In this document: positions 3,904 through 50,480 of the stretch, in pieces | Layout: each line of letters starts with the position of its first letter | Position numbering within the stretch: position 1 is the first letter of the stretch | Origin: Perkinsus olseni | Taxonomy: Eukaryota | DNA length: 64,000 nt | Assembly: GCA_013115125.1 (NCBI GenBank) | Contig: JABANN010000066.1 | Location: 1 to 64,000 of the forward strand | Reading direction: 5' to 3' | Made by a program: the position numbers and the translations under genes | Notes under the pieces: model-generated | What the model was told of the DNA's origin: nothing | Seen by the model: only the letters and a program-made list of their open reading frames with translations | The model's database searches: none

Positions 3904-4416
3904 TCAAGGGTCCTGCATCAACTCCTCAACCTTCCAATCCTCATACCTGATCATGCAGGAATCACCAACGCCCTCGGGATGAGCACTCCTACGTCCCGTC
4001 AGGCAGGAACCTCCGCACGATAAAGGGGATGACCTTGGCCACCAGCTCCTTCTCGGCGATGGCCATGGGGTCCGTCTCGCCCTCAGTGTCCACCATCACG
4101 GGAGCGTTCATAGAGATCTGCAGCGCCCTAGTGCCGATTATTCGAGCACGTTCGTATCTAAGGTCAAAGCTTGCGCTTCACGGGTTTTCCACACTATCTA
4201 CTTGGTCATATAAGGAGAGGTCCTCCTAGGCCCCTCAGCTTCACGCGCCACGAAATCATCGTCCTTTGGTTGGGTCGGCACTCGGCCGCTGGTAATGATA
4301 TCGCCGCTTCCGCTGCCGCCAGCCACTTCTTCGTCGGCGTTGAGGTCCGGCATCAAGTCGTCCTCATCGACCTCAAGATCCTCTTCGGGATGCGAGCCTC
4401 CGCCTAGATCTGCCAT
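3904..4416 (-). CDS. RPB6: RNA polymerase I/II/III common subunit RPB6 (3 exons)
   Basis: Spliced translation: acidic N-terminus, [31 protein letters not shown]...[10 protein letters not shown]...[22 protein letters not shown]; two GT-AG introns. Confidence 0.95.
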
Positions 4417-7377: not shown

Positions 7378-10300
7378 ATGGTGCATCAACACAAGTCAAG
7401 CTCCGGTTTACGGCAGACCAACAAGCCACATAGCAGTAAGAAGGTCCTGGGCAAGGGACGAAGGACTCCCGTGAAGGTCACTAAGGTCGGGAGTAAAGAT
7501 ATTAGCAAACAGGACAGGCGGAACCAAGCCCGGCAGCTGAGGGACAACAGAAGGCAATCGATAATAGCGAAAAGGAGGGTTGCTCAGGGGAAGGAGGGGG
7601 CGAAGGGGCCGCTGAACGTAGCGCTAATAGCGTTCCATGGTGATGTGGATATGCGTAGGGTTTGGGGGTGCTTTGCGAATGAGATGGTATGGAAGGAGGA
7701 CGGAGTTAATGTAGCTGACGTTGGAGGTGTGAGGATCATTGCCTCTCCTTTGAGGACGATACACAGCTGCTTGGATACGGTATTGGCCAGTGATGTGATG
7801 GTGGGCGTGTTTGTGTGTGATAGGCTGTGCGATCATGAGCATAGTGCTTTTGATGATCTGGGATACGACATACTTACCAATTTGAAAATGAATGTAAGTG
7901 AGTAATCGAAAGGTCCCTGGTTCGAATCCTGGTGGGTGTATCATTAGGGTATGCCTGGTGAAGTGATTGGTGTGACGGCTCCTTCCAAGAATACAGGAGG
8001 GGATTTACTTTCTGGGAGACAACTCGATCTCAGTCTTAAGACTGTTCAAAGGTAGTGAAGTTTTGTTCTCGTTTTCCGATCTGGGAAACTGAGGAATACT
8101 AAAATAGAGTACTAGTAGTAGTAATAAAAGGAGTACAAAAAAATCTGCATCTTATTGTGTGATCTCCGATGACTAGAATGGTTCATAGCACCGTTGGTAG
8201 TTGCCACTGACCGTGTCGGTAGTAGCGTGTGTCCCTGTCATCGCAGGTATCTCCGTTCGGAGCTGCCTCGGGCACAGGGTAAGGTTTATAACCTGCCGAA
8301 GGACTCGGACACGTTTGTGAAGGGACTGCAGGCATGTGTGGGGACGAATGATGAGGGCATGAAGTGGAGAGAGGAAAGGGTAGGGACATCTGCGGGAGGT
8401 CCCGAGTTCGAACCCTGGTCTCGTCATTATTCCAGGGTTATATGATAGTAGATCGTATCGAGCCAGAGGCAGGTCAGCCCAGTGGCCATTGGGCTGTATC
8501 GGGATGGGTGAAGGGGATGGGTTTCGCCTGCAACTACGGGGAGACTCCTGAGGACGGTGAAGGGGCTTGTGTGCACATCACTGGCTACGGGGACGCGGTG
8601 TTGGAGGGCATCACTGGCAGCGCGGGGGAACTGGTAATGGGGAATTTCGTGGTGCGTGACGGATGAGATGAGCTTGAGATGCTCTCGGTATTGCTGTGAA
8701 TGTCAGATTGACCGGCGTTTGTATGATGTGGCTCAGAGGCTGAGACCTTATGACCCGAGCGACGAGGAACAGACTTGGCCTACAGAGGAGGAGCTCAACG
8801 AAGCCAGCCGAAGAATGATTAAAATGCCTCAAGGTGTTAAGGGTTTGGTTCATCTTTTTGGAGGGCGTGGGTTCGATCCTTAGATGGTTCATTTTTATTC
8901 TCGTCAGATGCTGGTCTCAGCGAATTTGAGGTCGCCTGGCTAGGAGAGGAGGCTGACGAGGAGGGTGATGACCAAATGATGCTTGATGATAACGAGGTGG
9001 TAGTGGTTTCGAGGGTCGTGATGGGTGGAGGCGAGCTCGGAAGGATGTTATAAACACAGCGCAGTGGCATGAATTTTCGAGTCGTTATTCGAGGCGCGCA
9101 CGTCCCGTGATGGGTATAACCGCTTTTTGACTGACTGAGTGGTGGTGGTAATAGTATCAGTATTCCCGTGAGCGTCACGGTCGATAGCGCTAAGATTCCG
9201 ATGAGGTTGATATATATCGTGTGGCCAACAGTACTGCGGTTGTTGGTCTCAGGTCGCGGCAGCTGCGGACGGCAAGACTACCGAACAGCAGGTGGAAGCT
9301 AAGCATTCGATTGAGATGGAGATGCGATCGAAGGAGGAGATGGACTTCCCTGATGAGGTTGATACGCCTTGTGATAAGCCTGCTAGACAGAGGTGATGTC
9401 GGGTGCAGGGATCGATCCGGAGACCTCTATGACCAGCTCGCATGGTTTCTTGGCCGTGAATCGTCAAAGGGCTATGACATGCGAAGCGACGACTGAATGC
9501 TCGCTTGAGGACCACTTAGTCCTGAAAACGCCTTACCTTGCATAAGGTTTTCCTTTCCGCTCCGCAGGCCTTCTCTCGTGATTTGTTGTCTCATCGTGCC
9601 CTTGAGCATGAGGCACTCCGTACCGCCTCGTGCTAGGTTCCAAAAGTATCGTGGTATGCAGTCCCTTCGTACCAGCGCATGGGACCCTTATGAGAGCCTT
9701 CCCACAGAGTACAGTCGTATATGGGAGTTCGAGAGCTTCCAAGCTACGGCCAAGGCTGCTAAGACCGAGTACAAGAACGGCATCAAGGCAGAGGCGAAGG
9801 CGGGGCAGTAAGGAGGGAATGATAATTTCGTGGCGCGTGACGCTGATGGGAGTTCAATATATGCTCAACTCCTCGGATTCGCTCCTCAGTTACGTGACCC
9901 TGCACATTTCTGGTATGGAAGGTCTCTCCTTCGATAACCGCGTGCCCTTGGTGGTCTCATCCCTCTTCCGCCATGAAACCCGGGTGACCGTCATGCACGC
10001 CAGCCTTAGTCGGACGCCTGAGTAAGAGCAACTTTGACTAATTTCGTGGCGAGTGACGCTGTTGTTGGCAGGACGGATGATGTTGTTATGAAGTCGAAGG
10101 AGTTGGTGCTCTTGCGCTGCGGCTTCCGAAGTCTTCCCGCTAGGCCGACCTACGCCAGCGTGAGTTTAACATCATCGCCATGGAAGGGGAGTGAGGCAAT
10201 GGTTTCTCAGAATATCCGAGGTTCTGGTGGCCCGGGAGGTGGTGCTGACGAGAAGGGTAGGATGCTCAGGTTCTTCCAACCCAATGCTAAGTCCACGACT

Positions 10301-11117
10301 CTGGCGTGGTAAGCGGGAAGAGGCGGGCTGTTGTCTCTCGGTAGTTGAACAAAATGCTGTATTGCAGTAGCAGGCGGGTTTTTCTAGTGCAGAGGTGGGA
10401 AAGGTGTGCGATCTCGTGGCGCGGGAGAATAGTAGCGAGTGTCGTCCCTCTGGCATGGCGTTGTGGTTTCCCGCGCGCCACGAAAGTATATCGGGTGCCA
10501 GCAGGAGCCGACTCTCTGATCTTGCATTCATCGCTGCTGGTTCGTCGTATGCCGTGGTAACGATAATCTTTGAAAGGGGTTGATCGATGTCCCGGAGTGT
10601 CCTCTCCGTACAACTCACGCGAGCCGCAAAATTCCTGTTCCTTTGCCTTGTTAGTTTCTACGCTCCAGTGATGTTCCCTCCTGCGCCATGCCTGATGTAT
10701 ACACCAGATGGCCAACGTCTAACCGCCTGGGGGAGTATTGAGGGCTCTTTCCCGGCTAAGGTCCTTATTAAGAGGATTGTCCTCACAGGGTGAGCATCGA
10801 CTTGACCTATTTCGTATCTTGCAAGGTTGCGAGATAGATACCCCTACCGCGCACACAAGAGCAGGTCAGTCGTCCGCTTCATGTTCTTCAACCCTGATGA
10901 TATCAATTGGTTCAAGCCAGTCGAGCTGCAGTCAAAGAAGGGCCTCCGAGGGCACATCACTGAGGCCTTGGGAACTCACGGTTACATGAAGTGCCGTTTC
11001 AACGGTCAAGTGACGCAGGACGACACCATCATGATGCCTCTATATAAGAGGGCCTTCCCTAAGTGGTACCCACCGGCCTGGGGGATGGCGGACACGTACA
11101 AGCCCACTGACCAGTAG
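7378..11117 (+). CDS. TSR1: Pre-rRNA processing protein TSR1 (40S maturation factor), multi-exon
   Basis: N-terminal [63 protein letters not shown]-terminal [20 protein letters not shown]...[17 protein letters not shown]...LYKRAFPKW. Confidence 0.94.
7894..7947 (+). other. TSR1 intron containing a tRNA 3'-half-like fragment (Phe/Asn-like)
   Basis: 54-nt GT-AG intron containing AAAGGTCCCTGGTTCGAATCCTGG. Confidence 0.7.
8380..8435 (+). other. TSR1 intron containing a tRNA 3'-half-like fragment (Pro-like)
   Basis: 56-nt GT-AG intron containing TGCGGGAGGTCCCGAGTTCGAACCCTGG. Confidence 0.6.
8834..8907 (+). other. TSR1 intron containing a tRNA 3'-half-like fragment (Leu-like)
   Basis: 74-nt GT-AG intron containing TCTTTTTGGAGGGCGTGGGTTCGATCC. 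Confidence 0.6.
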
Positions 11118-11523
11118 CTGCTGCTGCTGCTGTTGTTGTATATTCCTACTACCAACGATGTTTCTTCTCTCGCTGAGGTCGGAGGGTTGGGTTTGTAGTG
11201 ACTCTGGGTTATGCATGAGCGGAGCGAAGCAAATATCGACGAAATCTTCAATAGACGGTATGGCTTACTACGCTCGGTAGGCCTTGGAATGCTGTCGGAG
11301 ATGTAAGCTCAACGGCATCAACGGTGCTCACTGTGGTACAAGTTAGCTGGGCATGTGCCTTGCTAGCACTCGATGGCCAGAGTGGGCATCTTAGGGGCAC
11401 CGATGCTTCATATCTACCTTGTTCTTGGCGTACCAGTCTTTAGCAGTTTCAGCGTGCTTCCGCTGCGACTGAAAGGAGGGACGGGGTTGATGGGGATGAA
11501 CTCAGAGTTTGCGGGGTTTGGAG

Positions 11524-12797
11524 ATGATGAACAGCCTGCCTAATGACACCGTCACCACGGTATATTCGAAAGTGATCGATCGGGCGATCAGTAGATTCCA
11601 GAGTGAACTCAGGCGGGAGGACGAGGAGGGCCGGGGCCGAGCCATACGTAAGCGTTGTTGGCCCTTAGTCGTTTGAGGTGACCTTCTCTACAGGTGCTGA
11701 TGTGCTCGGAGCCATCAAATCGCGGTGGATGCATCTCACACAGGAGTGCTACAAGAATGCAGGGAAGCTGCCCGCTGGTCTTAAGCGGCCGATGAGTGCT
11801 GGGTAATAGGACGCGGGCTGAGCTTTCTATACACGTCTTGGTAGGAGTCTTGTGGATCCTGTTCTACAGTGGAGCCAAGCCGTTATGCAAATCACTTCCT
11901 TTGAAACGACGCCCTCGTTTCGAAGAGTTCCTCAAAAGCCTTAGAGAGACGTACTGATAATAATATCATAGCTGCATGAATGATCATAAGAAAGTATGAT
12001 GCAATGTAGAATCGTACTATCCTGATTACCCCATGTTGTGGGGCTGATGGGCTCTTGGCAACGGGAGATGATCGTCCACTGGGAAGGATGCGCTCTCCTC
12101 ACAGCATGTCTATCAGGGTCGAGAATGGAGCAGAAGACGTGAAGAGACCGCGGATAGATCTCGAGGAGGCTGGGAAGGACGGCCAAGGCGGGGACGGGTC
12201 CGATGATGACGAAGATGACTTCGCCGACGAGTTTGATGATGCCGAGTTCGTCCATGCGACCGCGGCTGGCCAGAAGGCTTCAGCGGAAGAGCGTCAGCGA
12301 GCGGCTGCAGCCGAGGCTAGGGAGCACGAAAGGGAGGAGAGGCAGAAAGAGCTCGAACGGAAAGAGGTGACCGAGTGATCAAACTACTCCCTTGGGAGTT
12401 AATCTTGGCTCTTGCCTGTATAGTTCGAGGCGTGGTCTAAGATTGAGGGAGAGTTGATAGACGAGGAGAGGCTACTGGCGGAGGAAGATGCTTCCTGGAG
12501 ACATGTACGGGCTGTTCATGTGCATGTGTGCATACCAACTTTTTCGCAAAGATACCGATTCTGTGGTAGGTTCCAGATCCCGAAAAATGCCCAGTGAAAA
12601 TCTACGCCAATGTTGAGGTCACTGAAATGGGCTCCAATAAGCGGAGCAAGTGGAGCGTTTCGGCTGATCGAATACTCGTGGCTTCGGCAAGAGGAGAGTG
12701 GCTGGCGTCTAGTATGGAGGTGAGTTCAATGAGCCTCTACTTTACGAGGGAGATCTTCTGTGATGTTGACCGTATTGGAATACAGATAGTTACATAA
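11524..12797 (+). CDS. Probable TFIIA large (alpha/beta) subunit, divergent, multi-exon
   Basis: N-terminal NDTVTTVYSKVIDRAISRF...DVLGAIKSRW resembles the TFIIA-alpha helices; acidic central linker; C-terminal KIYANVEV...NKRSKWSVSADRILVASARGEWLASS resembles the TFIIA-beta strands. Confidence 0.55.
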
Positions 12798-12837
12798 GAG
12801 ATGAGAAGGGTTCTTTCTGGGACCTTTCATTCCGTAT

Positions 12838-13035
12838 CGTGGACGGGCTCGCTGTGATTCTTGAGGTCTTCTTCTTTCAGGGGTCCTTCCTTCATTTGGG
12901 AGCAGAGACTGCCGAGTGATGATGACGTTTCCTTGACACGATTGTTGAGATGAGTTTACCTGTCAATGGGGGCCACTACGCTGAGGTGCTTCTGCGGTAC
13001 CTGGAGTGGCTCTTGACGTAACTTAACCTGCGGGG
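12838..13035 (+). pseudogene. Decayed partial copy of the 5' region of the hypothetical gene at ~16.1 kb
   Basis: Aligns by eye with 16063-16260 (shared GTTGAGATGAGTTTACCTGTCAATG, TGGGAGCAGAG, CTGAGGTGCTTCT); contains in-frame stops. Confidence 0.6.
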
Positions 13036-14245
13036 TTTTTTGTGTAGAGCTAACATGTTGCGCGTAGCGTAGAAAACTGAGGCGTTCGGGAGTTGATCCT
13101 CACGCGTGCGATAATGCACACAACGGTTACGTCGACTGATTCGGGTGTCGCGTTCATGTGGCCAACGGACATTGTACTTGTGTTTCGCTTAGATTAGTGG
13201 CCTCCTGCCACGTCTCTTTTTCGAACCCGCCCTCTACCACCCGGCGAGAGCTTTCAATCGGTGTGCTGTACAACTCTCTACTCGTTTGCTCCACAAATTT
13301 ATGAGAGTTGAGCCCTTTCCATGTCGGCAATGCCGACGGGGCATCCGGTATTATACAGGCAGTATCTGCCCTGAGCATTGCCCTCCACAGAGAGCCCTTC
13401 CGAAAGCTTACAGTATGTCGGGAGGTCTGCGAACAGCCGCGTACTCCGCGCACTCACACGTGCACTTTACGACTGTTGAGTGTTGGAAAAACACCCGCAC
13501 GGAGTTATGATCCTCCTAATTTAGGAGTCCTAAAGCGGTGAGCCTTTTGGCAAGCTCGAATGTGCTGAGAAAGAAAGTGGTGGTTATAAGAGTAACGTCA
13601 CCTAAGGGCTGGCATTACACTTCAAATTCATTGTGTTTTACCAGGCGGGAAAGAGCCCGCCGGGACATGCGGAGGACCCTGAAGACCCACCGCCGCCGAG
13701 CCTTGCTGCCCTTCCTTGGGTGAGTCACTGGGTGAGCCACTGTGGCTTGAATCTGGGTCCCGGCCCTGGCAGTGCCGCCCTGCTCGGGTACGTTGACAGA
13801 GTCTCCGGCCTGGCAGCGAGGGCTGTTCGGGTTCCTCGCTTGGCTCCTTACACCGTAGCAATAATTATGGCCGGCGTCCCGCCAGCCAGCATCCACCTGC
13901 TATGAAGGGCGGCGAAGCATGCTACGCCAAACGTTCCATAGTGCTGTGCCGAATAATCCAGTTTTTTTACTCATTCATTTTACACGCATACGTTGTACTC
14001 CTTGTCGCACTTAGCGTTGCATGTAATCCCATGACATATTGCCCATGGTAGCGCACGCCTTGCTAAGACGAGACGCCGAGACTGGCTCTTTTTACATGGA
14101 AATTGCATTCCATTATGCTTTTGCTCCTCTTGTCTAAGAGCTACTACACCCCCTACTGACTTCCGAGTTCCCAAGTCGTCACAGTGCGCTACGCTGCAAA
14201 CGCTCCGATGTCGAACGGTCGAAGAGGCCGTGGAATCCACAGTCC

Positions 14246-14485
14246 TTGCGGCGATTCCTGGAGATGTGCGGCTATTATAGAAAATCCATAAAAGGGTACT
14301 CTCCGATTGCTTATCCGCTTACCGATCTTCTGAAGGGTGGACAACGATTCAGTTGGGGAAATCCGTACCTCGAACTAGTTCAGGCGTTGCTGGACGAATC
14401 AGTTCTCACGAGCCCGGATTGGTCGCATCCTTCCGAGTTGGAAGTGGATGCTTTCAGAGAGGACATCAGGGGAATACTCTCCTAG
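14246..14485 (+). mobile_element. Ty3/gypsy LTR-retrotransposon pol relic (RT C-terminus / RNase H junction)
   Basis: RRFLEMCGYYRKSIKGYSPIAYPLTDLLK...FSWG...LTSPDWSHPSELEVDA matches the conserved gypsy FLGxxxYYRRFIxxFSxIAxPLxxLL...LxxPDxxxPFxLxxDAS stretch; short and degenerate. Confidence 0.88.
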
Positions 14486-16064
14486 CCTGGGAGTTCCAGG
14501 GACTCCGAGGGCGTGTGAAAAGTTACGGAAGCCACCGGTTGACGGAAGGCATATAGTGTGATACTCGCCAGTTTCCTCTTCTCACCAAGACTCGTATTGT
14601 ACTACGGTCCCCGAGGGATCCCTTCGGAAGGACCGTTTTGTTCCGATAACAAGATGAATTCCAAACTCTTGAGGTACTGAGAATTATTAGTCGAAATTCG
14701 ACTTGAAAGTCGTTCCATGATGTGAATCTATCTGAGTGATCTATCAACAGTTGATAATCAATAATTGTACCTTCGAACCCGGTATTAATGGATAAATTGA
14801 ATTCAGTCTGAATTGTTCAGATATGGCCCAGAAGTGGTATTTGCCTCATTATCATCACCACGATCATCATCATCTCCATTGGATAGATATGTGGAATTCA
14901 CGTCTGTGAGAAGATCGTCAAGGATGGTGGAATGTCACGAACACAAGCCTTGAGGGTACAGGCTGTAGAATAAGGTAGATAAGTACGAAGGACAAGAAAG
15001 GCTGGACAGAGGAGAGCTGAGGGACACTAAGCCTAGCTTTGTGCTACTGCGCAAGATCCCCTGCGCAATAGTCTATGGTCTTGATAGTGCAATGGGTCGT
15101 AACTCTGCGTCGCAGAGTCTGCGATACCGTCCAGCGCTTCTGTGCAGGTACGTTGTGTTCCTACTAGTAACAGTAGACTTACTAGGTGTACGGGTTCTGT
15201 GAGACTTCTACTGTCGAACAGTAGCCGTCTACATGTTTACAATCATCATTTCGTACCTTCCTCTGTATCGCGTGTGCCCAAGTGAGAGCGAAGGGTTCGC
15301 GTGGCTTCAGCAAGAGGGCAGTGGTTGCCCGGCAACCACTATGAATTACAGTATATACCATATCGCATGTTACCCTCAGCGAATGTTGTGCCTTAGGAGG
15401 CCGGTTGGCCATTGGCGTTGATCATATTGAGGCAAAAGCTACGGTGTGAAAATTTCACGATGAGGCACGCAATGAGCAAGGAGGATACGCGCAGCTTCGC
15501 GCGCTCTCTTCAATTTGACAACTCCTGTAGAGTATTTCAAATTGCATGGAAAGTGAGATTTATTTTGCGTGACGTGAGTCTTTTAAATTCGCTAAATTAT
15601 CTAAAGTGGATGAAAGCTATTTTAAGATGAAACTCGGTTTCCCATATTCTTTTAAATCGAATGAAAATACATTTTATTTGCTCGGGAAAAGGTGTAGTAT
15701 GGAGGTGAGATCCATGAGCCTTCGTCTACTCTAGGAGGAATATATCCCATTTCTGCGGTGAAACACTTGAACGTACTACAAAAGCAGACGATCCGAGAAG
15801 TGCTGTTTCTGGAAACCTGTCGGCAAAGTGCGGTATCACAACACAAGAGAGTAGGGTAGAGTAGTAAGTGGTTGTTGGAAACCGTGAATTGACCTAAAAA
15901 TGGGATGATAGGAATGCTACGCGAGGAAAGAACATTGAGACTAGCTTGAACCAATCAAGCTAGAGTAGTGTGAGAAGAGACGCGGAATTATGAGAATTCG
16001 CCGAATTCAATTCGGAACTCAATTTGGGATCGGGTTACTGCAGAAGGCCTCTCGCGTAGACTCA

Positions 16065-17801
16065 TGTACGGGATCGCTTTGATTTTGGAGAGCTTCATTT
16101 AGTGGTCCTTCCTCCATCTGGGAGCAGAGGCCGCTGAATGATGACGGTGGTACCTTCAAACTATGGTTGAGATGAGTTTACCTGTCAATGCGGGCCACTG
16201 TGCCACTGAGGTGCTTCTCCGGTGGATGGAATGGCTCTCGATGTATCCGAACGTGCAGAGTTCTGCGGATAAGTTTGACTCGGACCCCGTCGGGCACATC
16301 ATCATGATTTTCCAGCTTGACACGACCCGCGAAAATCGACTCTTTGAACCCTTCCCTCATCACAAGGATTATGAATAGTATTTCCTAGCTCTAGTTTGCT
16401 CTGTCTGAGTCTACATCAGGCCGCGTTCAGAATCTCCACGCCGCTCTGAAGGCTCTGCTGCTTCCTATCCGTTCACTCACAGGAGCAGGGTTCATCACTC
16501 GTATTCGCCAGTCCCTGCCAGACGGCACGGTCGACCGTGTGATTGTCTCGGAAAGGAAGCTGCTCATGGGTGCGGAAGATGATGGCGGGCTCTCATGGGT
16601 CGCCCGAAAGCTCCATTTCCATCGTTCAACTGGTCAGTGATTTTCCACTAGCCAAGTTCTCCGAGATATACCCATATTCAAGTTGGGCAAAGTGAACGTT
16701 GAACGCGATCCTGGGCAGATTTCTGGACCCCTCCTGGTTCTCCAACTTCCCCTTTCTAACATATTTCATGCCCTCCCGCGGCAGTCTCGTGGTCGTCGCT
16801 TCTATCATCGTGGCTAGTGACAGCACTTTGCCGTGGTTCGTGAGACGCTTTAGCTCCCGCAATAAAGAGGCCACGCGGGTCGACGAGCTCAGGAGGCAGG
16901 GGGTAAGTGAGCTTCCATTGTGTTAACCATCTGGGAACTCAAGGCGATGGCTCAAGTGGAATCCTGAAATTCTGTCCGTGTCAAACTTCGCTGACTAAGT
17001 CACCCACTAGCGTCAAGCTTGGCTAGGGTTCCACAGTTGTGGGCTTGCACAACTACACATCGCTCACCTCTCTGGTCGGTCCAGTAGTAATCTTGATTTT
17101 TATGCTACTTTTGCATACTTAATCGATTTACGAGGGAGGAGATGTTTTCTTAGATACATTTCAGTGGAGTGATGTCAGGGTGCAAGATCATGCAGAGAGC
17201 TCCTCTGGAAGATATTGACTTTCGCATAACAATAAGTCCGAGAGGCCACCCTTCTCCCGGCACCGTCTTAGCCACGGCCTTGGACGATACCACCAGGGGC
17301 TATGCTTATAATTTGTGAGTTTGAGAAATCGAGACAACCGCGCCGACAGCTTTATGTTTCGCGATTTCTTTCAGCGATAATAGCTATGGGAGATTTTACG
17401 GAAGGGTGGGGGATGTGGAGATTCGAAGAGGGGACAAGGAAGTGATCTGGGAGGCGCTCAGAAGGGGCGGCTTCTTGCCGTTGGACCATCTTTCACCAAA
17501 GGCTCGTAAGGTTCTGCGAGAAAACGCTCCTCGGAATCGAACTGATTATGTAAGCGAGAAGGGTTGTCGCCGTATCACGGAGGCGATTATCGACGAGCAG
17601 CCGGCCGAGTACGAACAGTTTAAGGGCACTACTGGATGGATACCGTTGTTCCATAGAGATCGTAAATGGGGAATGGAGAAAGAAATGGCGAGGTTGAAGC
17701 AGCTTCAGGAGGACGAAGAGAGGAGGAAGGAGGCCAGAAGGAGCAGAAGACAGAAAACTGGCCTACGGCTGGGGTGGCCGCCCGGGCTGTTTTCAGACTA
17801 G
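16065..17801 (+). CDS. Hypothetical lineage-specific multi-exon gene (5' part possibly decayed)
   Basis: Exon-like blocks bounded by GT/AG (LTRPAKIDSLNPSLITRIMN|SRVQNLHAALKALL; GYAYNF|DNSYGRFYGRVGD) and a 131-aa terminal ORF ending at 17801; no recognisable domain. Confidence 0.45.
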
Positions 17802-18190
17802 ACCATCATCCTCTCTATTCTTTGTTTATTTTTATTATTAATGGTGTTCGTGTTAGCTGATGTTGTGTCAGATAGATGAACGGTTTTGCGTTCCAGTGAG
17901 TCCTAGCGTCCGATGGTATATGAGTTGGCTGGAAATGTGCAATCGTTAACTGCTTAGGAAAATCTGATTTCTTTGTCGGACATGAAACTTGATGGATACA
18001 GGTCTCTAATCCCATCTGGGAATAAAAGAGGGACTGAAGCGATTGGGCCCAGGAGGACGACATGTCCACTGCTCACAACGCTATGACAATTTAGGGCGAG
18101 CGCAACTTTTTATGCGCTGTTACACCCGCGCCCGCCCTGAAGTACGCCGAATCCAAAGAAAAATGATCTTCGTTCGTTCGGCGTGTTTAC

Positions 18191-21100
18191 ATGGCCACTG
18201 CAATCCTTTCATCGCCGTCGGCGGCGGGCCACAGTAGTCGGGCAAAGCGGATGACTCGTTTCCGACTGAAGGACCCGGAGAGCGCGCTCAGAGTTGCCGC
18301 TACACTGGGCGTCTTCCTACTCAGTGTAGGGCAGGCTTATAGGCTCGCCAGGGCGGCAAGGGAAATTAATACGACAACAACGAAGAAGAAGAGGAGCGAA
18401 ACGCAACGGTATTGTCCCTCTACGAGCGAACTTGCCCTTCAACTGCTTCTTCCTAGAACCACTCTGTCGGAGGAAGACACCCCAGGTAAGGCTGGCGAAC
18501 TCATTCTGCCCGACGCTGACCCCAATAGCAGCGGCTTGCTAACCCGCATGTTGGTAAGTTCTCGTCAAGCGGCTTTGATGAGGATGAGTGGCAGGTCCCC
18601 AACTCCATGGTTCAGCGTTTTACGGCGTTGCGTCGGCTACTGGACGCTTCTTGGGACGGTACTGCGGTTTTTGATAAGGTAAGGAGCATCCACCTCCCAG
18701 GCCACAACCATCATCAACAGCAGATAGTCACCTATGGCATCCTCGCTGGTGTACTCGGGACAAGCCTTGGGAAAGTCATAGGTAAGATAGAGTAATCCTA
18801 CAAGTTGTCTCACTTTCTCAAGAAAACATTTTTATATAGATTCTACTAAAATTTAATAGTCGGGCTTCGCTCGGCCGGATGCCGCTTTTGGCCCAGTTAG
18901 ACCTCGCCGAACTACTTAGTGATTATCCGTCCGCTTCGCTCCGCTAACATAATAATGTCATAACGGCTATTCTGTTCTCAAGCAAAGGACATGAGTTTCG
19001 CCCCCTCTTCCCGCGTAGATCGGATACAGGCCGCCTTGTTTAATACCCTGGTGGTGATTGGACTCAGGTCAACTTTACGTGTGGAAGTTAACGTCAACGA
19101 TCGATGCTATCATATTGCGGAAGAAGGATCCACCGCTATACAAACTCCTTTCCTGTGAGTATCTTGTCGCCATTCGTATCTTCCCAGGATCGACCTTAGA
19201 TATGCTGGCAATCGGAATACCTGTCGCCACGTTGCAGTGCTCCAGCGCCTACTTGGCTGGCCAGTTCTCCGTCAGGTTGAAGACGAAACTTGTCAAAAGG
19301 TCCGAATCATCACTCTATCGCAGTCAAAGTACAACCTGCCGTTACTCAGGCTTTTGCGCGAGATTATCTTTTCTTCTCACAACCTTGATGAACCTGTCTC
19401 CATGATAGACAAAGATACGCTCGCCCTTATACTCTCGCACATCAATAAGGTGCCATCAACGTCATCTCCTTTTCTACGTCAATTGCCCTTCCGCCTAGGT
19501 CTCGACGACGTTCGTGGAACTCTACTGGACTCGAACAATGAAGGCTGTGGATCTGGTCGTGTATGCGGGGGCTCTCATGGCACAGCATGGTGAGCAGAAA
19601 CCGAATACCATAACTTTGGTAACTCTCCAAATTCTAGACCTATCTTTACCTTCACTTCTACTCTTGTGAAATGAGTTTCAGCATGATTATGAGTATAATA
19701 AGCACTGCGACTTCTCCACTTCACGTGATCAACAGACTAAATACTGCCCACCTCCTGATGACGCGTAAGTGTCTGTCCGCGCAGGTCCATGGCCGGTGTT
19801 GGTGATGCTGCTCTATCTCTTCTCCACATTAAAAATAACCACAGAGCTCCAAGCTACTCGACAGGAGATGCTCATGGTGCACACAACTCGCTATCGTCCG
19901 TCAGTACCATCACTCGCAGGAATCAGCCCATCTCGAATCAACGGTAAACGAGGCCTTAACCCGAGCTGTGCGGCATCGCGAGAGTATATCGGCCTGGCAA
20001 GGGCGGGGCTACTTAGAGACAAAGCAAATATCCGCCCAACTGGTAACAGCATCCTGCCGGAGTCCTGTGCAACCTCCTCTCTTCACAGGATCTGTTGCAG
20101 CGTTCCAAATCCTCGCGTGCCTGGTTCGACCTGTTGCTTGGGTTCATGTCAACCCTTGGCAGCAAGTACATAGGTAAGCGTATCGCGAATTGTTTTCGGT
20201 TTTCAGTCAGCTCGGTGTTCAGGCACGGCCCTCGGGTTTTGGCTCACCTCCTATCCCTACATAGCCTCTCGTAATAGGAGATTCGCTCATATGTCGACGC
20301 GCCCTTCGGAGGTGGTGAAGACTGGAATGATTTTGTTTCGAGTGATCGATCTTTAGGATTACTTTGGGATAATATCTTACTTCTGGACGGCCAGGATTAT
20401 GATGAATTTATGTAGGTTAACCTATGGCTATCACGCATACTCCTAAGATTCCCCCGTTTTTCAAGTTATTCGCGATTTTCTTCTCATATTCATCGACCAT
20501 CTTCACAGGTACGGCCTTCGTTCAGTTTATGGATGACCGAGCGTCTCAGGAGGCTGGGGATAAGCTTTACGCCAAGGTGAGCATCGGGCCCGCATCTGCG
20601 TGTTGTGCTGCTGGTTCGTGCCACTTCTCGAGGCTTCGTTGAAGCAGATACATAAACTACACCAGCTGCTGGTCACTGCTCCGAGTACTCTACCCAAAGC
20701 CCATCGCAAATTCAAGGTTCGTATGACCAACGTCAGCTTAAAAGGCGTCACCGTAAGTGGATTCCGCTGGGATAACATCATCGTAGCTGTGTAGATTCAA
20801 AGCCCCTCTGGCCCTATACTTGTCCAGTCGCTCACCCTCGACCTCAATCCGGGATGCTGCATCGCTCTGTCGGGGCCTGGTACTATCAGTAAATTTATGA
20901 TACTTTCCTGTGTATAACCTCTCAGGCGGCAGCGGTAAATCGGCGCTCCTTCGCACACTCAACGGAACTTGGCCGATTTGTAAGTGACTAATAAATCAGT
21001 GAATCTCAACGGTCATTGAGGCAGGCGTTGGGGAGCTGGCCCGTCCAAAGCACGGTGTTATGCTGGTGCCACAGAAGCTGTATATGCTGAGAGAATCCAG

Positions 21101-22095
21101 CGCAAAGCAGCAGATCGCGTAGGCTATGGGTGCTCACTTCACCGACTCTGATACGCCTACGCTTCAGGAGAAGCTCGTGTCTTGGGCGATGATTTGGAGT
21201 TCGTGGTGGTCGAGTACCGCTGGAATCTTTCAGGTATCCAGATGGCCCTCCCGAGAGCTCAGCGGACGAGGACAGAGTCGCCCAATGCATGAGAATATGT
21301 GAGAAGTCTTCAACGTTCCCACATCGAGTTTTTGGTATCAGGTGAGCTCGACAGATTGTCCGGTCGCCATACGTTATCAGAGGCGGAACAGGAGAGGGTA
21401 GTCTTGGCCCGTCTCCTATACCACAAGCCAAAGTTCGCCCTTATTGACGACTGCCTGCGATGTAAGGATTCTGGGGGAAGCGTTCGTCTAATTTGACAGT
21501 GGAACACGCGAGTTGAATGCAACACAAGACGGTGGAAGACAAACATAGAATAACTGGTACTATGGTCAGTTCCAGTGAGGAGCTCGGCTTCTTCTATATT
21601 GATATCACCATTTAGGAAGAGGGACGATGAGGCTATCTCTTCGGAGTGGCCGTGCATCGATAATACTTACTTGATACTGTACTGCACTTCAGGAGGGGAA
21701 AATGCTTGAATGCTCATCTCCTGAGTCACTGTTCATGTGCTTCGACTCTGCGGATATTATGAAAATCATGTTTCATCTTTCGTAGGGACAACAGTAGATA
21801 ACAGTGTTCTTCCCATCAAGGTACCGACCCCAAACTAGTAGGCGAGGTGGTCTCCATACTACGACAAGACGCTGGCTGCGGCATTGTTATCGTTTGCCCT
21901 AAGCCCGACAAGGTGAACTCTAGTTTTCCGTCGTCGCCCATCATCTGCGGTCCTGCTCAGGTCGAGGCCCTCTCTCGTTACATACACTTTGATGGGATAC
22001 TCTCTCTCGATAACAAGACCACGCCGCCTCGGCACAGCTACAGCGCCTGCAGCGCTGTTCCCGTACCACTGGCTGACGTCAAGGCGAAGACTTGA
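18191..22095 (+). CDS. ABCD-family (peroxisomal-type) ABC half-transporter, multi-exon
   Basis: Hydrophobic TMD exons, spliced Walker A LSGP|GGSGKSALLRTLNGTWP, and ABCD-typical LARLLYHKPKFALIDDC. Confidence 0.85.
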
Positions 22096-22818
22096 ACTCA
22101 TCAATTCTGCTGATTTCGTTCCATTCTTTTCAACATTAGTGTAATTTTTCATGACTTTATGCAAGTTTCGATTACTGGGGGACTCCCTTTCTCAGTTGCG
22201 TTGTGAAAGTTGTTCAGCTAGCAACACTGGTCGAATGTGGACGCCGCGTAACGACATTAATTCATCTGCGGTGATCTCCTAGCGAGAAATCGGCGGGTAA
22301 AAGATTACTCTATGTGGGCCGTTGATGGCCGTGGGTGCACTCACTTTGGGACGAAATGAGGAGTGCGCGATCTGGGACAAGACGTTGTTTTATGATTGAT
22401 TCACCGTGGCTCGACGGATCTCAGACTCCAGGGCTCGAATAGAGTCGCATTCCGAGCATTCCGAGGTCGTGATTCTCAACAGCATCGCCGACTTAATGGA
22501 CCTTGTGCTTTACGCGTTTTAGAATAGAATGCGGATAGTGAGTTCTTCTGAGAGAACTTCTTGCAATTCTGGTATATACAAATTGTGCTGAAACCAGACG
22601 TGAAACTAAATAGGGATGATGCTCAGATAATAACACAGCTGATGGTGACACCGTGAAGAACATGTTAAGACATCGTACTTGATAACTATTGAATTACAAC
22701 ATGAAAAGAAGTTAATACCGAAAATGGCAGCCTGCAGGAATCCAGTAGGGAGACCACTTCACTGTATGATAATCAGCGTATAATCTGCCACGCCATGGCT
22801 TCTACTCTAAAATTAGAT

Positions 22819-23793
22819 TCAGCTCGATTCGGCCGGCGGGGTTCGATGCATGTAGATGAGGGTATACTTTTGCCGAGAACCTTCTATAACCAGTTTGTCA
22901 TTTTCGCACAGGTAAACCGTATACTCCGACTGTGTCGTTTTTCCTGGTCGCACGAGCTTGAAAACACCGGGATGATGGGCCGGGACTAGCAGCGCATTCA
23001 ATAGAAACAAGGACCCGTCTCTAACCTGCAAAGTGACGTAAGCCCTTCGCTGACCATCACTTTCGGTTTCGACCCGCATCTCAGCGGGCCCTTCACCAGA
23101 CTTATCCGCGTAGAATCCATCGTTGATCTTTTTGTACTCGGTCACTTTCATCTTTTTCCTCGGCGGTTGGACGCCATCGTCTGCGGAGCAGTATCGTCTG
23201 CGAGCAGACTCAGCTCCCTTCCTATTTACTTCGACGCTATCTCCGGCTGCTTCAGGCTCGAGATCCACCGGCAAGTTGAGGTACTGGTAGTATGGGGTTG
23301 TTGGCCGCCGGACAGCGTCCAAATATAACGTCAAAGCTGGCTTTTCCTTGGTAGAATTATTTTTTGTGCATAAGAGAATTCTCCTACAGCTCGTGCCTTC
23401 TCGCATGTCATTTTTCCCAGCGAGAAATTTGAGTATCTTTCGGGTGGTATGAAAATAATAGCATTTGGAAACGTCATGTTGGTCCTTCAATCTCCGCATG
23501 TTGCTTGTCAGTTCACAAATCCGCTGCTTAAATCTCGTGGTGCCATTTCGGTCACTGAAGCTGAGATCTGCCCAGCTACTATCCGAGTAATGGTTTATCT
23601 CAACACGAAACGACTCTAGCCCACCAACTTCGGGTGGCATCGAGAGGGCCGTGTACGTGCCGGAGGGGATATCATTTGGCGAGATGGCGCCACGCTCACG
23701 CCAATTCTCAGCAACAGAACCGAATGAGGTGGCCGAGAGTAGACCGAGCAGTAGAAGGGCTCTCCTCACAGTGCAGCGATGGGCGTCGGGCAT
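22819..23793 (-). CDS. Secreted lineage-specific hypothetical protein, intronless
   Basis: 324-aa ORF with signal peptide (RRALLLLGLLSATSFG); two segments starting IPSGTY / INDGFY; basic PPRKKMK motif in the linker. Confidence 0.7.
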   Translation of the reverse strand: MPDAHRCTVRRALLLLGLLSATSFGSVAENWRERGAISPNDIPSGTYTALSMPPEVGGLESFRVEINHYSDSSWADLSFSDRNGTTRFKQRICELTSNMRRLKDQHDVSKCYYFHTTRKILKFLAGKNDMREGTSCRRILLCTKNNSTKEKPALTLYLDAVRRPTTPYYQYLNLPVDLEPEAAGDSVEVNRKGAESARRRYCSADDGVQPPRKKMKVTEYKKINDGFYADKSGEGPAEMRVETESDGQRRAYVTLQVRDGSLFLLNALLVPAHHPGVFKLVRPGKTTQSEYTVYLCENDKLVIEGSRQKYTLIYMHRTPPAESS

Positions 23794-27815: not shown

Positions 27816-30800
27816 ATGGATTGGCTTCTCCTTTCGATCGTTAAACTGTGTCTTCCGCAGTTGGTAAGTCGATTTCTTCCCCCATCACCACGTTTTTGTC
27901 AGGATTTGTCATCAGCATTGGAGGAGGCATTCGCATCGGATGTTGAAGTCAAGACAGCTCTTGCCGAGTATGAGAAGGCGGTGCCCGAGGAGCTGATGAA
28001 TGGCAGACCGCTGCCTTGAGTTGTGGTTTCATGATTTTATTCGAGATTTTCGTCTTTTAAGGATAGGAGTTTTATTTCAGTTATTATCTGGTTAGTCGGT
28101 CACGGTGAAGACTTTTCACAGTGGAGTTCATTCGGCCGTGAGAGGGAACAGTAGTTGTGTTCAGTCCACTTGAAGAAAACTTCCCATTTATCGGGAAGGG
28201 AAGTGTCCGATGTCCGTATGCTGTGGATTCCGAGCGTGGGAGATGAGATCGGTATCATTCCGGATGGTACGACCACCACATGCAGGAGTAGGCTACTCGT
28301 ATGCTCCGTATGGGTATGTGGAACCGAGCTGCTGATGGGTGACCACCTCCCGTGGCAGTGCTCTCAGATGCCGGTCCTTCGTTCTGGAGGTGTGCTCGCC
28401 ATGATGCATGCCGCGCATTTCCGAGGGATCATATGCGGATTCGGCGCATTAATGCGCGAGATGGCATCGCGGTTCGTCATTGCATTTCATCAATCATTGG
28501 TTCGAGTTGAGTAGTTATGAATGATGGCTTATACTCGCTGCTTTATACTGTTGTACTTTATTTGTTTTACCTCCTCGAGTGACCAACCTGGCGGTGCCTT
28601 CATCTCGTTACCCCCTTATGCTGTGTGATATGAGTAGCAGTAGCTCGTCCCCTTTCCTGCTACTGATTGGTTTCTGAGCAAACTCAGCGTATGATAGCAG
28701 GAGGGCGTCTTAAGTCAAGGGACGTTGGGTATCTTCCCGGCTCGAACCCGGCGATAGGCTTCCTTCGAATGGGGAGGGACAATGATGCATCTTCCAGTTA
28801 TGTCCACTTATGCCGGATTATGGCGAGGTGTGGTATCAGGAATGTTCGAGGCTGTAATTTCTCCGTTGGTAGCGGTCCGGATGCAGAAAGCGAGAGCAGC
28901 GTGTGAAAAGGCCGCGACCGAGGTGTTCGACTCCGGCAAGACAAGATGCGGATTCCGGTACTGGGTAGTAGAGGGAGCGGAGACTCTCACTTGAATCAAG
29001 TGACTTGATAGGTGGTTGCATCGATAAGACTTGCGCTCCGTATTCGAACCCGGTAACAGTCTCAAAGGGCGCCGGCTCGAGCGTCGGCTGATCGTTTGGC
29101 GGGCTGGGTATCCCGCCTAGTAGGCGGGTTTCGGGCGTTCACTTTAGGCCTTCTACGTCTTGGACATCTCCTAGTGCTAGTTTGTCTCCATTTCAAAGCC
29201 TGTAGTGCATCCGGGAGTGGTTCTTCTCCCTTCAGGTGGCGAGTAGATCCACGACTCCTTTTGGAACGGCAGTAACCCGCTATGTGGTGGACGAGAGACT
29301 CTCGTTGTTCTACACGGCTAATGCTATACACCCCGATGATGGCGGTTCTGTGCTCACCATCTTCGGAGGGAGGACCTTCCGCGAACATCTCTTTGAGCAT
29401 GCTAAGGCGCAGTAAGTCATCAGTCTGTGTCCTCCTTTCTGGGTGGGAGATGCCTCTTCGCGCACCAGTGCCCGTGCTCTTCCACCGTCACTCAGACGTT
29501 TAACTATCGAGGGATACATTAGGCCTCTCCTCTTAGGGATAGGAAAATAAAGATGTCAATCACTTGTAGTTACGAGGCCATACTGCAGCTAGCATGACGA
29601 CCCCTATTGTGGGCTCGCTCATTGGTCTTCGGGTGTGCATTCGCACTCGGTATACATGGTCATTTCTATCACGGTTCTCGAGGTACTACGGCCACCCTTT
29701 ACCTGGCTTCGGTACAGCCTTTGTCAACAAGAATCAAGATACCGGTCACTACGAGGCCGTTTTCAAAGCGGTTGAGTGGTGGTCGAACCCTTTGTTGGCC
29801 GCCTTCTACGACACGGAGCGGGCGTCCTGGATGGGAGTACTGACGCCGGGCAAGAGGAGCCCGAGGAATCCTAGTGATGGTGCTGGATGTAGTCTGATGA
29901 TGGTAGTGAAGGCAGCGGAGGGGCGGGAGGCTGTCGTTACTGGCACTATGGGAAGAGGGAATTATCAAATGTAATAGTGGGGAGGCGATCTGCGAATTGT
30001 CATCTATCGAAATTTGTGTATCGGGAAGCAGAAGATTCGAGGCCGTTTTCTGGTTTTGAGGCGCCGGGAAGAGGTGATGCCAGTCCCGGTTGGCTCGTGT
30101 CCATTACTAGTTGTTGGGAGAACACACTCTCCCGCGTAACAGCGGCGAGGAGTCCGAATCGAACTTGCCGAGTGTGGGAGAAGTCTGTTGCTTCCATTGT
30201 TGGAGCCGAAGATTGCTCGTAAATCGCTCTTGACTTGGACTGCAGCCGTCGAGTGATGATAGGCGGACGACGCTGAAGGTACGTGAGTGAAGAGGAGGGT
30301 ATCCTCGAGGTCAGCGATCTGGCGTCGCCATCGGCGGTGAACCAGGGGACTGCTCCGATAGAGAAAGGCCTGGGGTGCTTTCATCTCAAGGTAGGCGCAG
30401 GTTCGATCCTCGGCTCGGGTATATCGTGATCGTTGTTAGGACCCGTGTTTTGGTATTGTAAAGGAAGGAGAGATGCCTCGGATGAGCTGCATGCCCCACC
30501 TAGGAGTGCTCCCGCGAATGATCGGACGCAACTGGATCGTCCTCATCAGTAGCGCGGGGCCTAGGCGGAAAGGCTCAACCGATTTTTGCCATATACACAA
30601 AAAGTGCAGTGCCACTCTGCACCACCGCTGATGATGACCCTCAGTCCTTAGAGTACAGCATGAAATGTAGCCGGTGGCGGGTGAATGACTCAGTGACGCT
30701 CATGCATGTTTCCCTTGGTGGAGGTACGTCCTCGGTAGAATTGGCATGGCGATGGTTTGAGGAGTGTAAAGTGGCATGATTTATATGAAGCATCACTCGA

Positions 30801-47528: not shown

Positions 47529-50095
47529 TCAGGAATCATGCAGCCATTGAGTGATGTTATCGACATCCGGCTGGAAGATACTCCCAGATGTGCTCGTGTT
47601 CCATAATAGTCCATAGAGCCCGTCAACGATACCGCGGATGGCAGCTTGGGGTATCTTTGCGAGCCAGGGTCTTAGCGGAGCGATGCTGAGGAGCTGGTCA
47701 CTTGTATGAGTATGAGATACGGCAGCTTGAAGTGCAGTGCAAGCATGAACACGAGGCTCAGGGCGAACTGCTCTGTCGTCGACATGTTGGCCAGCCGGGT
47801 GATCCCTAGTGGACAGAGCTGATGAGGGGCCGAAGGGGTGAGGGAGGTTCACATGGATGCCTCTCGCGCAAGGCGTGTTTGCTCTCTGCCTTCAACCTTT
47901 CGAGCTCTTCCCGGGACCTCAGGGAGACAACTATTAGTGACCCTCTAGCTTTCGCTATACTCCTCTTGCTTCGGCTGATCAATTTTGTTTCTCATCCACT
48001 GCGCGCATCCAGTCGCCTGATAGACGGGCAGCTCTAAGTCGCAGCAGCATTGGCCGTACACGCTACCGCGAGCATCAGTTCTTCGGATGCGGGAAAGGCG
48101 TTGTTCTCCTTGAGAGATTCGAACCTCCTGAGCTCCTCGGAAACCTGATAGAGCCCTCAAGACTGCCCATGGCTGCACATGGCCGAATAGTAGCGGCAGT
48201 CAGGAGCACAGCAGTCCAGAGTGTACTATTGGATCCTTGAGGTCGAGGCCAAACCTGTCCATGACCTCGCGGCAGACGGTATCATCTAATAGCTGACCGG
48301 TCTTCGAGAGACGTGATGTCTGAGGTGCCCAAGAAAGCGAAACACACAACTACAGGGTTTGACACTCACCATCATCTTTGTCGCCTCGCATGACCTCGAG
48401 TAAGCTCGCTGCTTCTTAAGGAGCTGAGAGGATACACTAGAGATGATCCGGTGGTCGCACGCCCATCGAGTCACCTGTTTGATGTAGGCCTCCATTCTGA
48501 CAGCCTTCTCCTTCTCACCTCCGCTCAGGTAGAGGTCCCTTAGCACCGCTCCGCTCGGATACTCTCCTCAAGAAGTTACCTCAGTAGTTGGGCATCCTTC
48601 AATCGCGACTGCACTGCTTCGTGCAGCTTCCCATCATCGGTCTCCTGAAAGCCGCAGTGATCGAAGCCTAGCAGAGTCGAGCCAAGCAGGGGTGTAGGAA
48701 GCCGATCTTAGGGGGTGAGAGAGGGGCGAGCTACATCACATCACCAGAGGGCCCGAATCGCTGCCAAGGTCGTCGCTGCCCTTCGACAGGGCGGTCTCAA
48801 GGGATAAAGAGCCGCGAGCTGACAGGTGTTGTTGCGATCCTTCAGGCCAGAGAATCGGCTGGGGTAAGACTACTGCACCATCCTGAGTAAGCCTTCTTCT
48901 CATCGCTCCGCTTCCTCGATCTCTCCGATTGCAGCCGACGCAGGAAGACGGCTACTTCCTGAGTAACCCTCTCGAGATAAGTTTCAGTTGGAACTCCTAT
49001 AAGATCACCGTGTTGTTAGGGTCGACCTCGCGAGCGCTGGCGAGGAGCTTGACAGCTTCATCAACCTCAGCATCACCGCTGGACGCTGGCTCCACCAGGC
49101 ACTTGGCCTTCCTGCCAGACAACAGACCCCACCGCGGCCATCCACATTGAGGCCTACCGGAACATTGCCTTCACATTAGTGCTATCTAGCTGCAGTATGA
49201 CGTCGCATGTACGGCAAGCCTCAGGCAGCATCTCCTTGCCTGGCCACGATCACGGAGGTCTCCACTAGCTGACTATTGCGGAAGAGAAAGATTTGAGGCC
49301 TACCCAACTTCATCTGGCACATAGCGATGTTGCTGTAGCACTGCACTCTGAGCTCTCGGATCGTTGCCTGCTCCTCCTCGCCTAAAGCACGAAGGCCATT
49401 CCCTATGCAAGACCGTACGGTAGTGAAATGGGATGCTTCACATCATTACAAGAATGACTATGATGATATCGTCACGTTAACAGCGATGGCTCGTTAAGAG
49501 CGGTAACTCCTACTTTGGCCTATGTCAGTGACGACCTCCAGGTAATCGTCATTGAGACCTTCGCGTCTCCAGTTAGCGTTCAAGATCCGGGCGTAGTAGA
49601 AGAGACCGGCCGCCTGGCTGTATCTGTGCAGCCCTCTCCCTCCAGCCATTCCCAGGGGTTCAGAAACAGGCACCTATTCATGGCCAGGAAGTACTCCCCT
49701 TCGGTGTAGTATTCAGTTGCCTCCTCCTTCAATCTGCCACAGCGCTGATAGCACCGACAGGTGTAGCCATTCGTACCGCCGTGCAGCCTTTAGCCTCTCT
49801 TGGTGGGGCAGGGCTCGGAGGTTGTCGAAGGAGTCCTCGTCGACAAACACAGGAGATTGATTCTCTGACCACCACCCTTACCCTCTCCAACCACACCGGC
49901 AGGCTCCCTACCCTGTTCATGCCCCATGAAGGCGGTGTACTGGAGAAGCACCGGCCAGGATTCGAACCTGGGGCCTCGAGTGCTGCACTGTTAGACTTGA
50001 GCTTTGCCATCGAACCTCTTCCGTTTAGCGCTGGACTGAGCCCCCTTTATCTTGGCAGCATCCGCTAGTATTCTGCTGAATGAAGTCTCGTCCAT
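47529..50095 (-). CDS. TPR-repeat protein, multi-exon
   Basis: Spliced ERLKAARRLKEEATEYYTEGEYFLAMNR and LRVQCYSNIAMCQMK are co-chaperone-type TPR helices; both ends approximate. Confidence 0.65.
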
Positions 50096-50480
50096 GACTT
50101 ATGGTATATCTCGCTCAGCTAAATCCCCACTATTCACTCGGCAGAACACCACAAGAAGCTTCCAACGCAAACAGCAGCAACAGCTTCAGTTCAAAGTGCT
50201 GGGAGGGCAGCACTACGCACCTATCATGCATTATCTGTCATCATCGGCGGCGAGACCGACGTTCGTTCCTTGTCTACTTGGGCGAGGCTCGTCTAGAGAG
50301 CGGTGATAGACAGCCACAGAGGCTCACTGACTACGGAGGGTTAGACCCTGAAATTTGCGATGGATAAGAACATACCCCCCTAAGTTGCAGTGCCGCACTC
50401 GTTCGAAGACAGTGCATGAATCGGAAAACCGAATATGCTTTTCCTTCGTGGAGGGGTGTGGTAGTGTCCATAGGCACCGA

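Follow-up and report, generated by a model that had tools for sequence, protein, structure and literature searches.

The origin of new spliceosomal introns is a long-standing question; the cases known so far comprise introners, which are transposon-like, and filler insertions, which are rare. Capture of filler DNA at double-strand breaks has been proposed as a route of intron gain for Daphnia and others, and to our knowledge no recurrent, specific class of filler donor, such as the 3' ends of transfer RNA (tRNA) genes, has been described. Isolated B-boxes are present in yeast and human genomes as extra-TFIIIC (ETC) sites. Closer to the organism studied here, invasive intronic elements are described in Amoebophrya, a relative of Perkinsus (PMC7789003), and for P. 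marinus another report gives an unusually high number of tRNA genes, with more than 500 copies of five types, along with Dada DNA transposons that target tRNA genes (PMC3706591). Here we analyze the first 64,000 nucleotides (nt) of contig JABANN010000066.1 (hereafter the window) of Perkinsus olseni, a parasite of shellfish and an alveolate whose lineage sits between apicomplexans and dinoflagellates. The window holds eight copies of a 30-nt unit that resembles the last part of a tRNA and lies within spliceosomal introns, one of them putative. With about even confidence, we read these units as relics: the 3' ends of tRNA genes or pre-tRNAs from several sources would have been inserted, and would thereby have given rise to short introns or supplied new content for existing ones.

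An earlier examination of the same DNA from its letters alone (the sequence-only reading) had listed six short introns with such motifs. All six were found, each with GT and AG ends, and they are real or well supported, three by RNA contigs and three by homologues across them. According to Pfam, TSR1 occupies 7.3–11.1 kb, the PALP/cysteine synthase gene (cysK) 25.1–27.5 kb and NOL10 4.9–6.9 kb, with other genes elsewhere. Contigs of four public runs, one on record as RNA and three guessed to be RNA, were mapped over positions 7500–27499, whereby the 15 joints listed of a total of 53 were used as evidence and stretches without cover were not counted. Neither cysK intron is among these 15 joints, and the intron 30391–30439 lies beyond the mapped stretch. 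Contigs of all four runs skip the TSR1 introns 7894–7947, 8380–8435 and 8834–8907. Overall, RNA contigs bridge 12 GT-AG intervals of TSR1, these three included, and splicing the gene at all of them (the three and nine others) gives a single open frame with the terminal stop only; altogether, contig joints are present at four of the unit-bearing introns. In cysK, residues 223–270 of the cysteine synthase structure 5i7w_A match the exon upstream of the intron 26641–26707 and residues 276–311 the exon downstream, and the five residues between the matched parts are supplied by the exon ends, so that the product is collinear with 5i7w_A and the frame joins. The second cysK intron, 27357–27400, is partly supported: homology to residues 295–312 of 5jjc_A stops exactly at the upstream exon end, no solved structure matches the exon downstream of 27400, and the acceptor is placed by the reading frame alone. 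When single cysK exons were submitted to Pfam, only PALP positions 244–280 were recovered (E 0.0016). The sixth intron, 30391–30439, belongs to a hypothetical gene at 28.8–31.1 kb, to which P. olseni proteins align at 79–97% identity except for two of the 18 aligned pieces (both of P0122) at 66–67%; three P. olseni proteins (P0121–P0123) and P0124 of P. chesapeaki are collinear across the joint 30390|30440. A de novo predictor of short introns that relied on codon usage was dropped, as it detected no more than 2 of the 12 TSR1 introns already known.

The unit is composed of a variable loop, a T-arm, seven further nucleotides, usually an A, and then a T. In tRNA numbering it reads A44-G-G-N-C48, a stem of 5 bp, a TTCRANN loop, the returning stem, seven variable bases and the final A and T. 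Seven copies were aligned without gaps over 39 columns; the copy at 9397–9426, found later by a covariance model (CM), stands outside this alignment. Invariant columns are C10 (tRNA position 48), G15, T16, T17, C18, A20, C23, G27 and T36, the last being the first base past the discriminator. The discriminator position is an A in five of the seven aligned copies and the next base is a T in all seven. Although C48 and this T lie outside every search pattern, both are invariant. The view of the sequence-only reading that the units are 3' parts of tRNAs is borne out: the likeness exceeds a core of 6–8 nt and runs from the variable loop through the T-arm to the A and the T. A 7-nt TTCRANN loop with G53 and C61 is present in seven of the eight copies, the remaining one (9397–9426) having an A at position 54, unlike the others. 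The T-stem pairs, by our own count, at 4/5, 4/5, 4/5, 5/5, 4/5, 3/5, 5/5 and 3/5 positions in the eight copies. The flanks are also those of a tRNA 3' fragment, with C48, a 7-nt acceptor strand, the discriminator and a T-rich trailer at fixed spacing. CCA does not follow the discriminator in any of the eight copies, and TTTTT follows it directly in two. The missing CCA and the T following the discriminator point to the sequence of a gene or pre-tRNA rather than of a mature tRNA. Moreover, the B-box consensus GGTTCGANNCC is present: the string GGTTCGAWYC is matched in four of the eight units (7919, 8870, 26655 and 30400) and in a fifth on the minus strand (49959). In the whole window this string has six matches against 0.64 expected, five of them being the intronic copies.

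The CM, built from the seven aligned copies and run over the window with filters off, gave eight matches with 17.4–41.3 bits (E ≤ 0.0062), seven of which are the training sequences themselves, and everything else remained at or below 9.3 bits (E ≥ 2.8). All eight copies lie in GT-AG introns, that at 49940–49996 being putative, and seven of these introns are 44–74 nt long, while no CM copy was found in the intergenic DNA or in the interiors of long introns of the window. Two minus-strand copies, at 9397–9426 and 49947–49976, were added to the six of the sequence-only reading. Degenerate T-loops near 28742 and near 29044 (minus strand) were not counted, as they did not reach a CM E value of 10 or less. 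An isolated B-box-like stem-loop at 48112–48128 on the minus strand (GGAGG TTCGAAT CTCTC) has no variable-loop or trailer features and no CM match; it is probably a chance occurrence and was likewise left out of the count.

The association with short introns was tested with a stem-loop regular expression (regex). In the eight RNA-bridged TSR1 introns shorter than 100 nt (488 nt in total) it had three matches against 0.0156 expected, and none of 5000 dinucleotide shuffles reached three. Over all 15 bridged introns the three matches compare with 0.10 expected, with 1 of 5000 shuffles reaching this number, and the TSR1 exons (2211 nt) contain no match. The comparison with shuffled introns put forward in the sequence-only reading, run on the RNA-bridged short introns, shows enrichment, and the tie between the units and short introns is strong.

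The sense orientation relative to the host gene is found in six of the eight copies and in five of the six first listed, in agreement with the sequence-only reading, and the statement there that the motif fills much of the intron corresponds to a share of 41–68% in the seven short host introns. With the unit subtracted, these introns would be left with 14–44 nt, which in five of the seven is below the minimum of 39 bp given for Perkinsus introns in an earlier report (PMC3101222). In sense copies the distance between the discriminator and the 3' splice site is 7, 9, 16, 31, 18 and 7 nt, and the two antisense copies have the discriminator 3 and 4 nt away from the 5' splice site; the trailer end is 3–9 nt from a splice site in five of the eight copies (own count). 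The large share of the unit, the short remainder and the placement at the edge fit an insertion that either was the intron or replaced its older content, and they fit passive passengers less well. Of the four explanations offered by the sequence-only reading, intron birth or refilling agrees best with this geometry. The coordinates of the eight copies and the evidence for each are collected in Table 1.

Table 1. The eight intronic copies of the 30-nt unit, with host introns and supporting evidence (Rfam scores are those of the 5'-truncated test)
Copy	Host intron	Coordinates (strand)	Length (nt)	Unit	Other features	Basis
1	TSR1, intron 1	7894..7947 (+)	54	7911-7940, sense	T-arm 7916-7932	Joint 7893->7948 in 4 runs; regex; CM 37.9 bits; Rfam tRNA 15.6 bits, E 0.23, top family
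2	TSR1, intron 3	8380..8435 (+)	56	8397-8426, sense	T-arm 8402-8418	Joint in 4 runs; regex; CM 40.3 bits; Rfam tRNA 9.9 bits, E 9.4, second family
3	TSR1, intron 5	8834..8907 (+)	74	8862-8891, sense	TTTTT immediately after	Joint in 4 runs; regex; CM 41.3 bits
4	TSR1, intron 7	9393..9636 (+)	244	9397-9426 (-), antisense	Decayed; 4 nt from 5' splice site	Joint in 4 runs; sole non-training CM match (9393-9431), 17.4 bits, E 0.0062
5	cysK	26641..26707 (+)	67	26647-26676, sense	TTTTT immediately after	Exons collinear on 5i7w_A; frame joins; regex with 5/5 stem; CM 40.3 bits
6	cysK	27357..27400 (+)	44	27360-27389 (-), antisense	Discriminator 3 nt from 5' splice site	5jjc_A homology upstream; acceptor by frame; regex; CM 33.6 bits
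7	Conserved Perkinsus hypothetical gene	30391..30439 (+)	49	30392-30421, sense	T-stem 3/5	P0121-P0124 collinear across joint; CM 35.1 bits; overlooked by stem-loop regex
8	Putative intron	49940..49996 (-)	49 (from GTGCAG) or 57 (from GTCTAA)	49947-49976, sense to minus strand	Perfect T-arm	Regex 5/5; CM 39.8 bits; Rfam tRNA 18.5 bits, E 0.038, top family; flanks join in frame

The likeness to tRNA was further evaluated with the Rfam tRNA model (RF00005), for which stretches cut at the unit start were treated as 5'-truncated RNA in four of the eight copies. Copies 1, 2 and 8 align to model positions 43–71 of 71, ending at the discriminator, and tRNA is the top family for copies 1 and 8, in the latter case out of 4227 families. 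The unit at 26647–26676 gave only a T-arm match to transfer-messenger RNA (tmRNA), a member of the tRNA clan, with 5 bits. Concerning the 5' half, ARAGORN found no tRNA over the window, and an A-box pattern occurred 16 times against 14 expected, with no occurrence at the proper distance from a unit. Together with the negative standard Rfam scans (see below), this means that no 5' half is present, as the sequence-only reading had stated for the A-box and the D-arm. Pairing partners for the acceptor segment were sought by eye and no consistent ones were seen, copy 8 alone having a 5-bp partner. Exact and degenerate patterns of copy 8 had no match in prokaryote genomes or in viral contigs, a result of little weight. 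At least 120 metagenome loci matched a pattern that fits both copy 1 and copy 8 and does not fix the stem pair, and most of these loci are tRNA-Arg, Ile, Lys, Val and Leu from other organisms; among the matches listed there are only copy-1-like variants and none with the acceptor of copy 8, which is weak evidence.

Several observations weigh against an origin of the units from tRNA 3' ends and their role in making introns. Neither the window as a whole nor 7880–8920 gave a tRNA match in standard Rfam scans, there is no full cloverleaf above the gathering score, and every truncated tRNA score is under the gathering score of 29 bits, the best being 18.5; this can be put down to the unit being only a 30-nt piece. 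The interpretation given by the sequence-only reading is upheld in part: an origin from tRNA 3' ends with several sources is favored and the truncated alignment to RF00005 was obtained, whereas the scores stay below the Rfam threshold. By eye, the stretch leading from the 5' splice site to the unit showed no consistent remnants of an anticodon arm, target-site duplications were likewise not seen, and at the joints of the three bridged introns only a microhomology of 1–2 nt fits both sides. Window-wide, the stem-loop regex is in modest excess (7 matches against 2.6 in shuffles, with 10 of 300 shuffles reaching 7), and one of the seven is the probable chance match at 48112. Since the copies were found via the T-loop, its conservation is partly built into the search. 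The host gene of copy 8 had no relatives in two protein searches, with only a weak partial match to TPR_1 (E 0.087). Finally, all counts come from one window of 64 kb.

Whether the units derive from one family or from several tRNAs is best seen by comparing copies 1 and 2. Over the stretch that starts with the variable loop and ends at the first acceptor base they are identical at 20 of 23 positions, in the remaining acceptor at 0 of 6, and then the A and the T are shared again; the chance that all six acceptor positions fall among the nine differing ones is about 2e-4 by our own arithmetic. Unrelated acceptor segments joined to similar loops and T-arms are the pattern expected of different source tRNAs and not of the neutral decay of one repeat, which favors the view of the sequence-only reading that this is not one family of short interspersed elements (SINEs). 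The opposite view, that all copies represent one old dispersed repeat of SINE or miniature inverted-repeat transposable element (MITE) type, carried in introns as a passenger without a role in making them and with the acceptor-like part lying outside the repeat, seems unlikely to us. It would account for the similarity of the variable loop and T-arm in all copies, including the close agreement of copies 1 and 2; tRNA-related SINEs are common in eukaryotes, and other dispersed motifs are present in Perkinsus introns. It does not explain why similarity resumes past the variable segment, at a fixed spacing of 7 nt, with the A (5/7) and the T (7/7). Moreover, the units have no A-box upstream of the B-box and share no sequence beyond their own limits, and passengers would be expected to accumulate in intergenic DNA and in the interiors of long introns, neither of which has a CM copy.

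A conserved function of the units is, in our estimate, rather improbable. They might have been kept as intragenic B-boxes binding TFIIIC on DNA, comparable to ETC sites, or as an RNA element that aids the splicing of short introns or yields small RNAs. Such a role would be in line with the B-box core being the best-preserved part, with the excess of GGTTCGAWYC given above, with the tie of the copies to short introns and with the prevalence of the sense orientation, but the search itself selects for the core, and a B-box requires neither position 48 nor the discriminator nor the following T, all of which are kept. The T-stems are intact in only two of the eight copies and broken in six. The minimum-energy folds of the introns 7894, 8380, 8834 and 26641 (four of the six sense copies) lack the T-hairpin, and in a set of 12 folded introns not one exceeds its shuffles in stability (z from -1.5 to +1.6). 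In addition, five of the eight RNA-bridged short TSR1 introns are spliced without the unit. The decayed stems and the shuffle-like stability make an RNA function unlikely, and the units are read as relics. Should they prove conserved instead, they would be the first intronic B-box/T-arm elements with a role in genes transcribed by RNA polymerase II (Pol II) of a protist.

Intron-nested tRNA genes occur in other eukaryotes, and the T-runs in the trailers resemble terminators of RNA polymerase III (Pol III). It is nevertheless very improbable that the units are remains of whole nested genes whose 5' halves have since been deleted. Seven host introns are 44–74 nt long, no longer than a tRNA, conserved coding sequence begins only 1–28 nt upstream of the units, and the loss of the 5' half would have to be assumed in eight of eight cases with A-boxes at chance level. 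The sequence-only reading had listed this option as well, and with such introns and with coding exons directly upstream it fits poorly. The weakest explanation, that the units are chance matches to a short GC-balanced motif in compositionally biased sequence, can draw on the loose regex being only 2.7-fold above shuffles window-wide, on GTTCRA alone occurring 84 times against 64 and on the probably accidental match at 48112, but it is largely refuted by the short-intron shuffles, none of which reached the observed three, and is hardly credible given the conserved columns outside the search pattern and the clean split of the CM scores.

Under the favored reading, insertion from several tRNA sources, the following course of events could be envisaged. 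Pieces of several different tRNA genes, or of the primary transcripts of these genes, would have entered protein-coding genes as short insertions. Each piece would span the 3' third (variable loop, T-arm, acceptor strand of the 3' side, discriminator and T-rich trailer), and it would have arrived either through the capture of DNA at a break or as the reverse-transcribed copy of a 5'-truncated pre-tRNA. The insertions would have survived because they were spliced out. As the insertion is the bulk of the intron in most cases, it would have made the intron or replaced older content, with the trailer end of the unit coming to lie at one intron edge. In sense copies the T-rich trailer would stand just before the 3' splice site, where it may serve as the pyrimidine tract.

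Some of the short TSR1 introns without the unit contain a repeat of another kind. A second dispersed motif, (T)AATTTCGTGGCGCGTGACG, is present in three of them (8642–8667, 9823–9848 and 10039–10064) and also at 4239–4255 (minus strand), 5774–5790 and 6012–6028, that is, six matches at three or fewer mismatches against 0.23 expected. Its occurrence in these introns indicates that short introns here often hold repeated modules. Precisely at the edges of the motif (9842, 10041 and 10057) RNA contigs change to sequence of no relation, which makes it probably a dispersed repeat; two of its copies are in NOL10, within a long open frame. The TSR1 intron 10309–10654 has a 16-nt inverted repeat (10414–10429 and 10468–10483, 88% complementary, with 38 nt between the arms), and its arms include the core of the same motif (TCGTGGCGCG), so that this looks like a small hairpin or a MITE-like element. 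Within the TSR1 intron 8634–8706, GATGAGATGAGCT is found at 8662–8674; it may resemble the PAC motif that ribosome-biogenesis genes of yeast carry. Just upstream of the TSR1 start, at 6994–7173, there is a GGGAAA-type microsatellite about 180 nt long.

Elsewhere in the window, the longest open reading frame (ORF), 61796–63790, has 92% identity to P. olseni beta-galactosidase and 53–57% to proteins of P. chesapeaki and P. marinus; with the identities at the hypothetical gene, these values place the window in P. olseni or a species very near to it. P0124 (1030 amino acids, Pfam histone deacetylase) aligns to both the hypothetical gene at 29831–31104 and the deacetylase gene at 37004–39424, so that the two are either fused in the P. 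chesapeaki annotation or form one long gene here. Two direct duplications were seen, one of 31698–33100 against 33493–34845 (about 1.8 kb apart, 73–86% identity) and one of 50471–50752 against 53527–53818 (about 3.06 kb apart, 90–94% identity). On the minus strand at 2416–3060, four copies of a 54-nt repeat with a spacing of about 200 nt lie in an ORF of 368 amino acids without a Pfam match, which suggests a repeat-domain protein.

If the favored reading is true, the 3' ends of tRNA genes would be a recurrent and recognizable donor, and thereby a datable marker of intron gain or turnover. It might be extended to the lineage as a whole: Perkinsus would gain introns without a transposase, whereby 5'-truncated Pol III transcripts or tRNA gene ends, from many tRNAs, insert into exons and become short introns at once, with the trailer as the pyrimidine tract, and a sizeable share of the shortest introns would be tRNA-derived. 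This extension is doubtful at present. A search of the openly accessible literature found no description of tRNA-like sequence in Perkinsus introns or of tRNA-derived intron gain.

Among the systems described so far, introners and introner-like elements of Micromonas, Aureococcus, fungi, dinoflagellates and Amoebophrya are repeated sequences that make up whole short introns, which implies gain by insertion, and the Perkinsus units likewise take up a large part of short introns. However, introners form near-identical families, whose members frequently end in terminal inverted repeats and are bounded by direct repeats, whereas the Perkinsus units share only tRNA-wide features, have fully different acceptors, lack inverted and direct repeats and sit in canonical GT-AG introns; they are alike only in the loop and T-arm, and the rest of each intron is unrelated. 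SINEs derived from tRNA, and tRNA pseudogene fragments, have in common with the units the origin from a tRNA gene, the B-box and the scattering in Pol II genes in both orientations. SINEs, however, begin with a 5' tRNA-related head that contains both the A and the B box and is followed by a body and a tail, and the Perkinsus units correspond to the last 30 nt and the trailer, without an A-box and apparently from several tRNAs. ETC sites resemble the units as isolated matches to the B-box consensus without an A-box or a full tRNA, but they are bare B-boxes, mostly intergenic, while the units are placed inside short introns and retain a variable loop, a discriminator and a trailer. The Dada elements share the genus and the link between mobile DNA and abundant tRNA genes, but they are 4.7–11 kb long and insert inside tRNA genes near the D-loop, and nothing similar is present at the unit-bearing introns (PMC3706591). 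The capture of filler DNA shows the likeness of a short foreign insert in an exon that is tolerated since it is spliced, without the hallmarks of a transposon. Overall, the Perkinsus units would be a variant on the known theme of insertion-derived introns.

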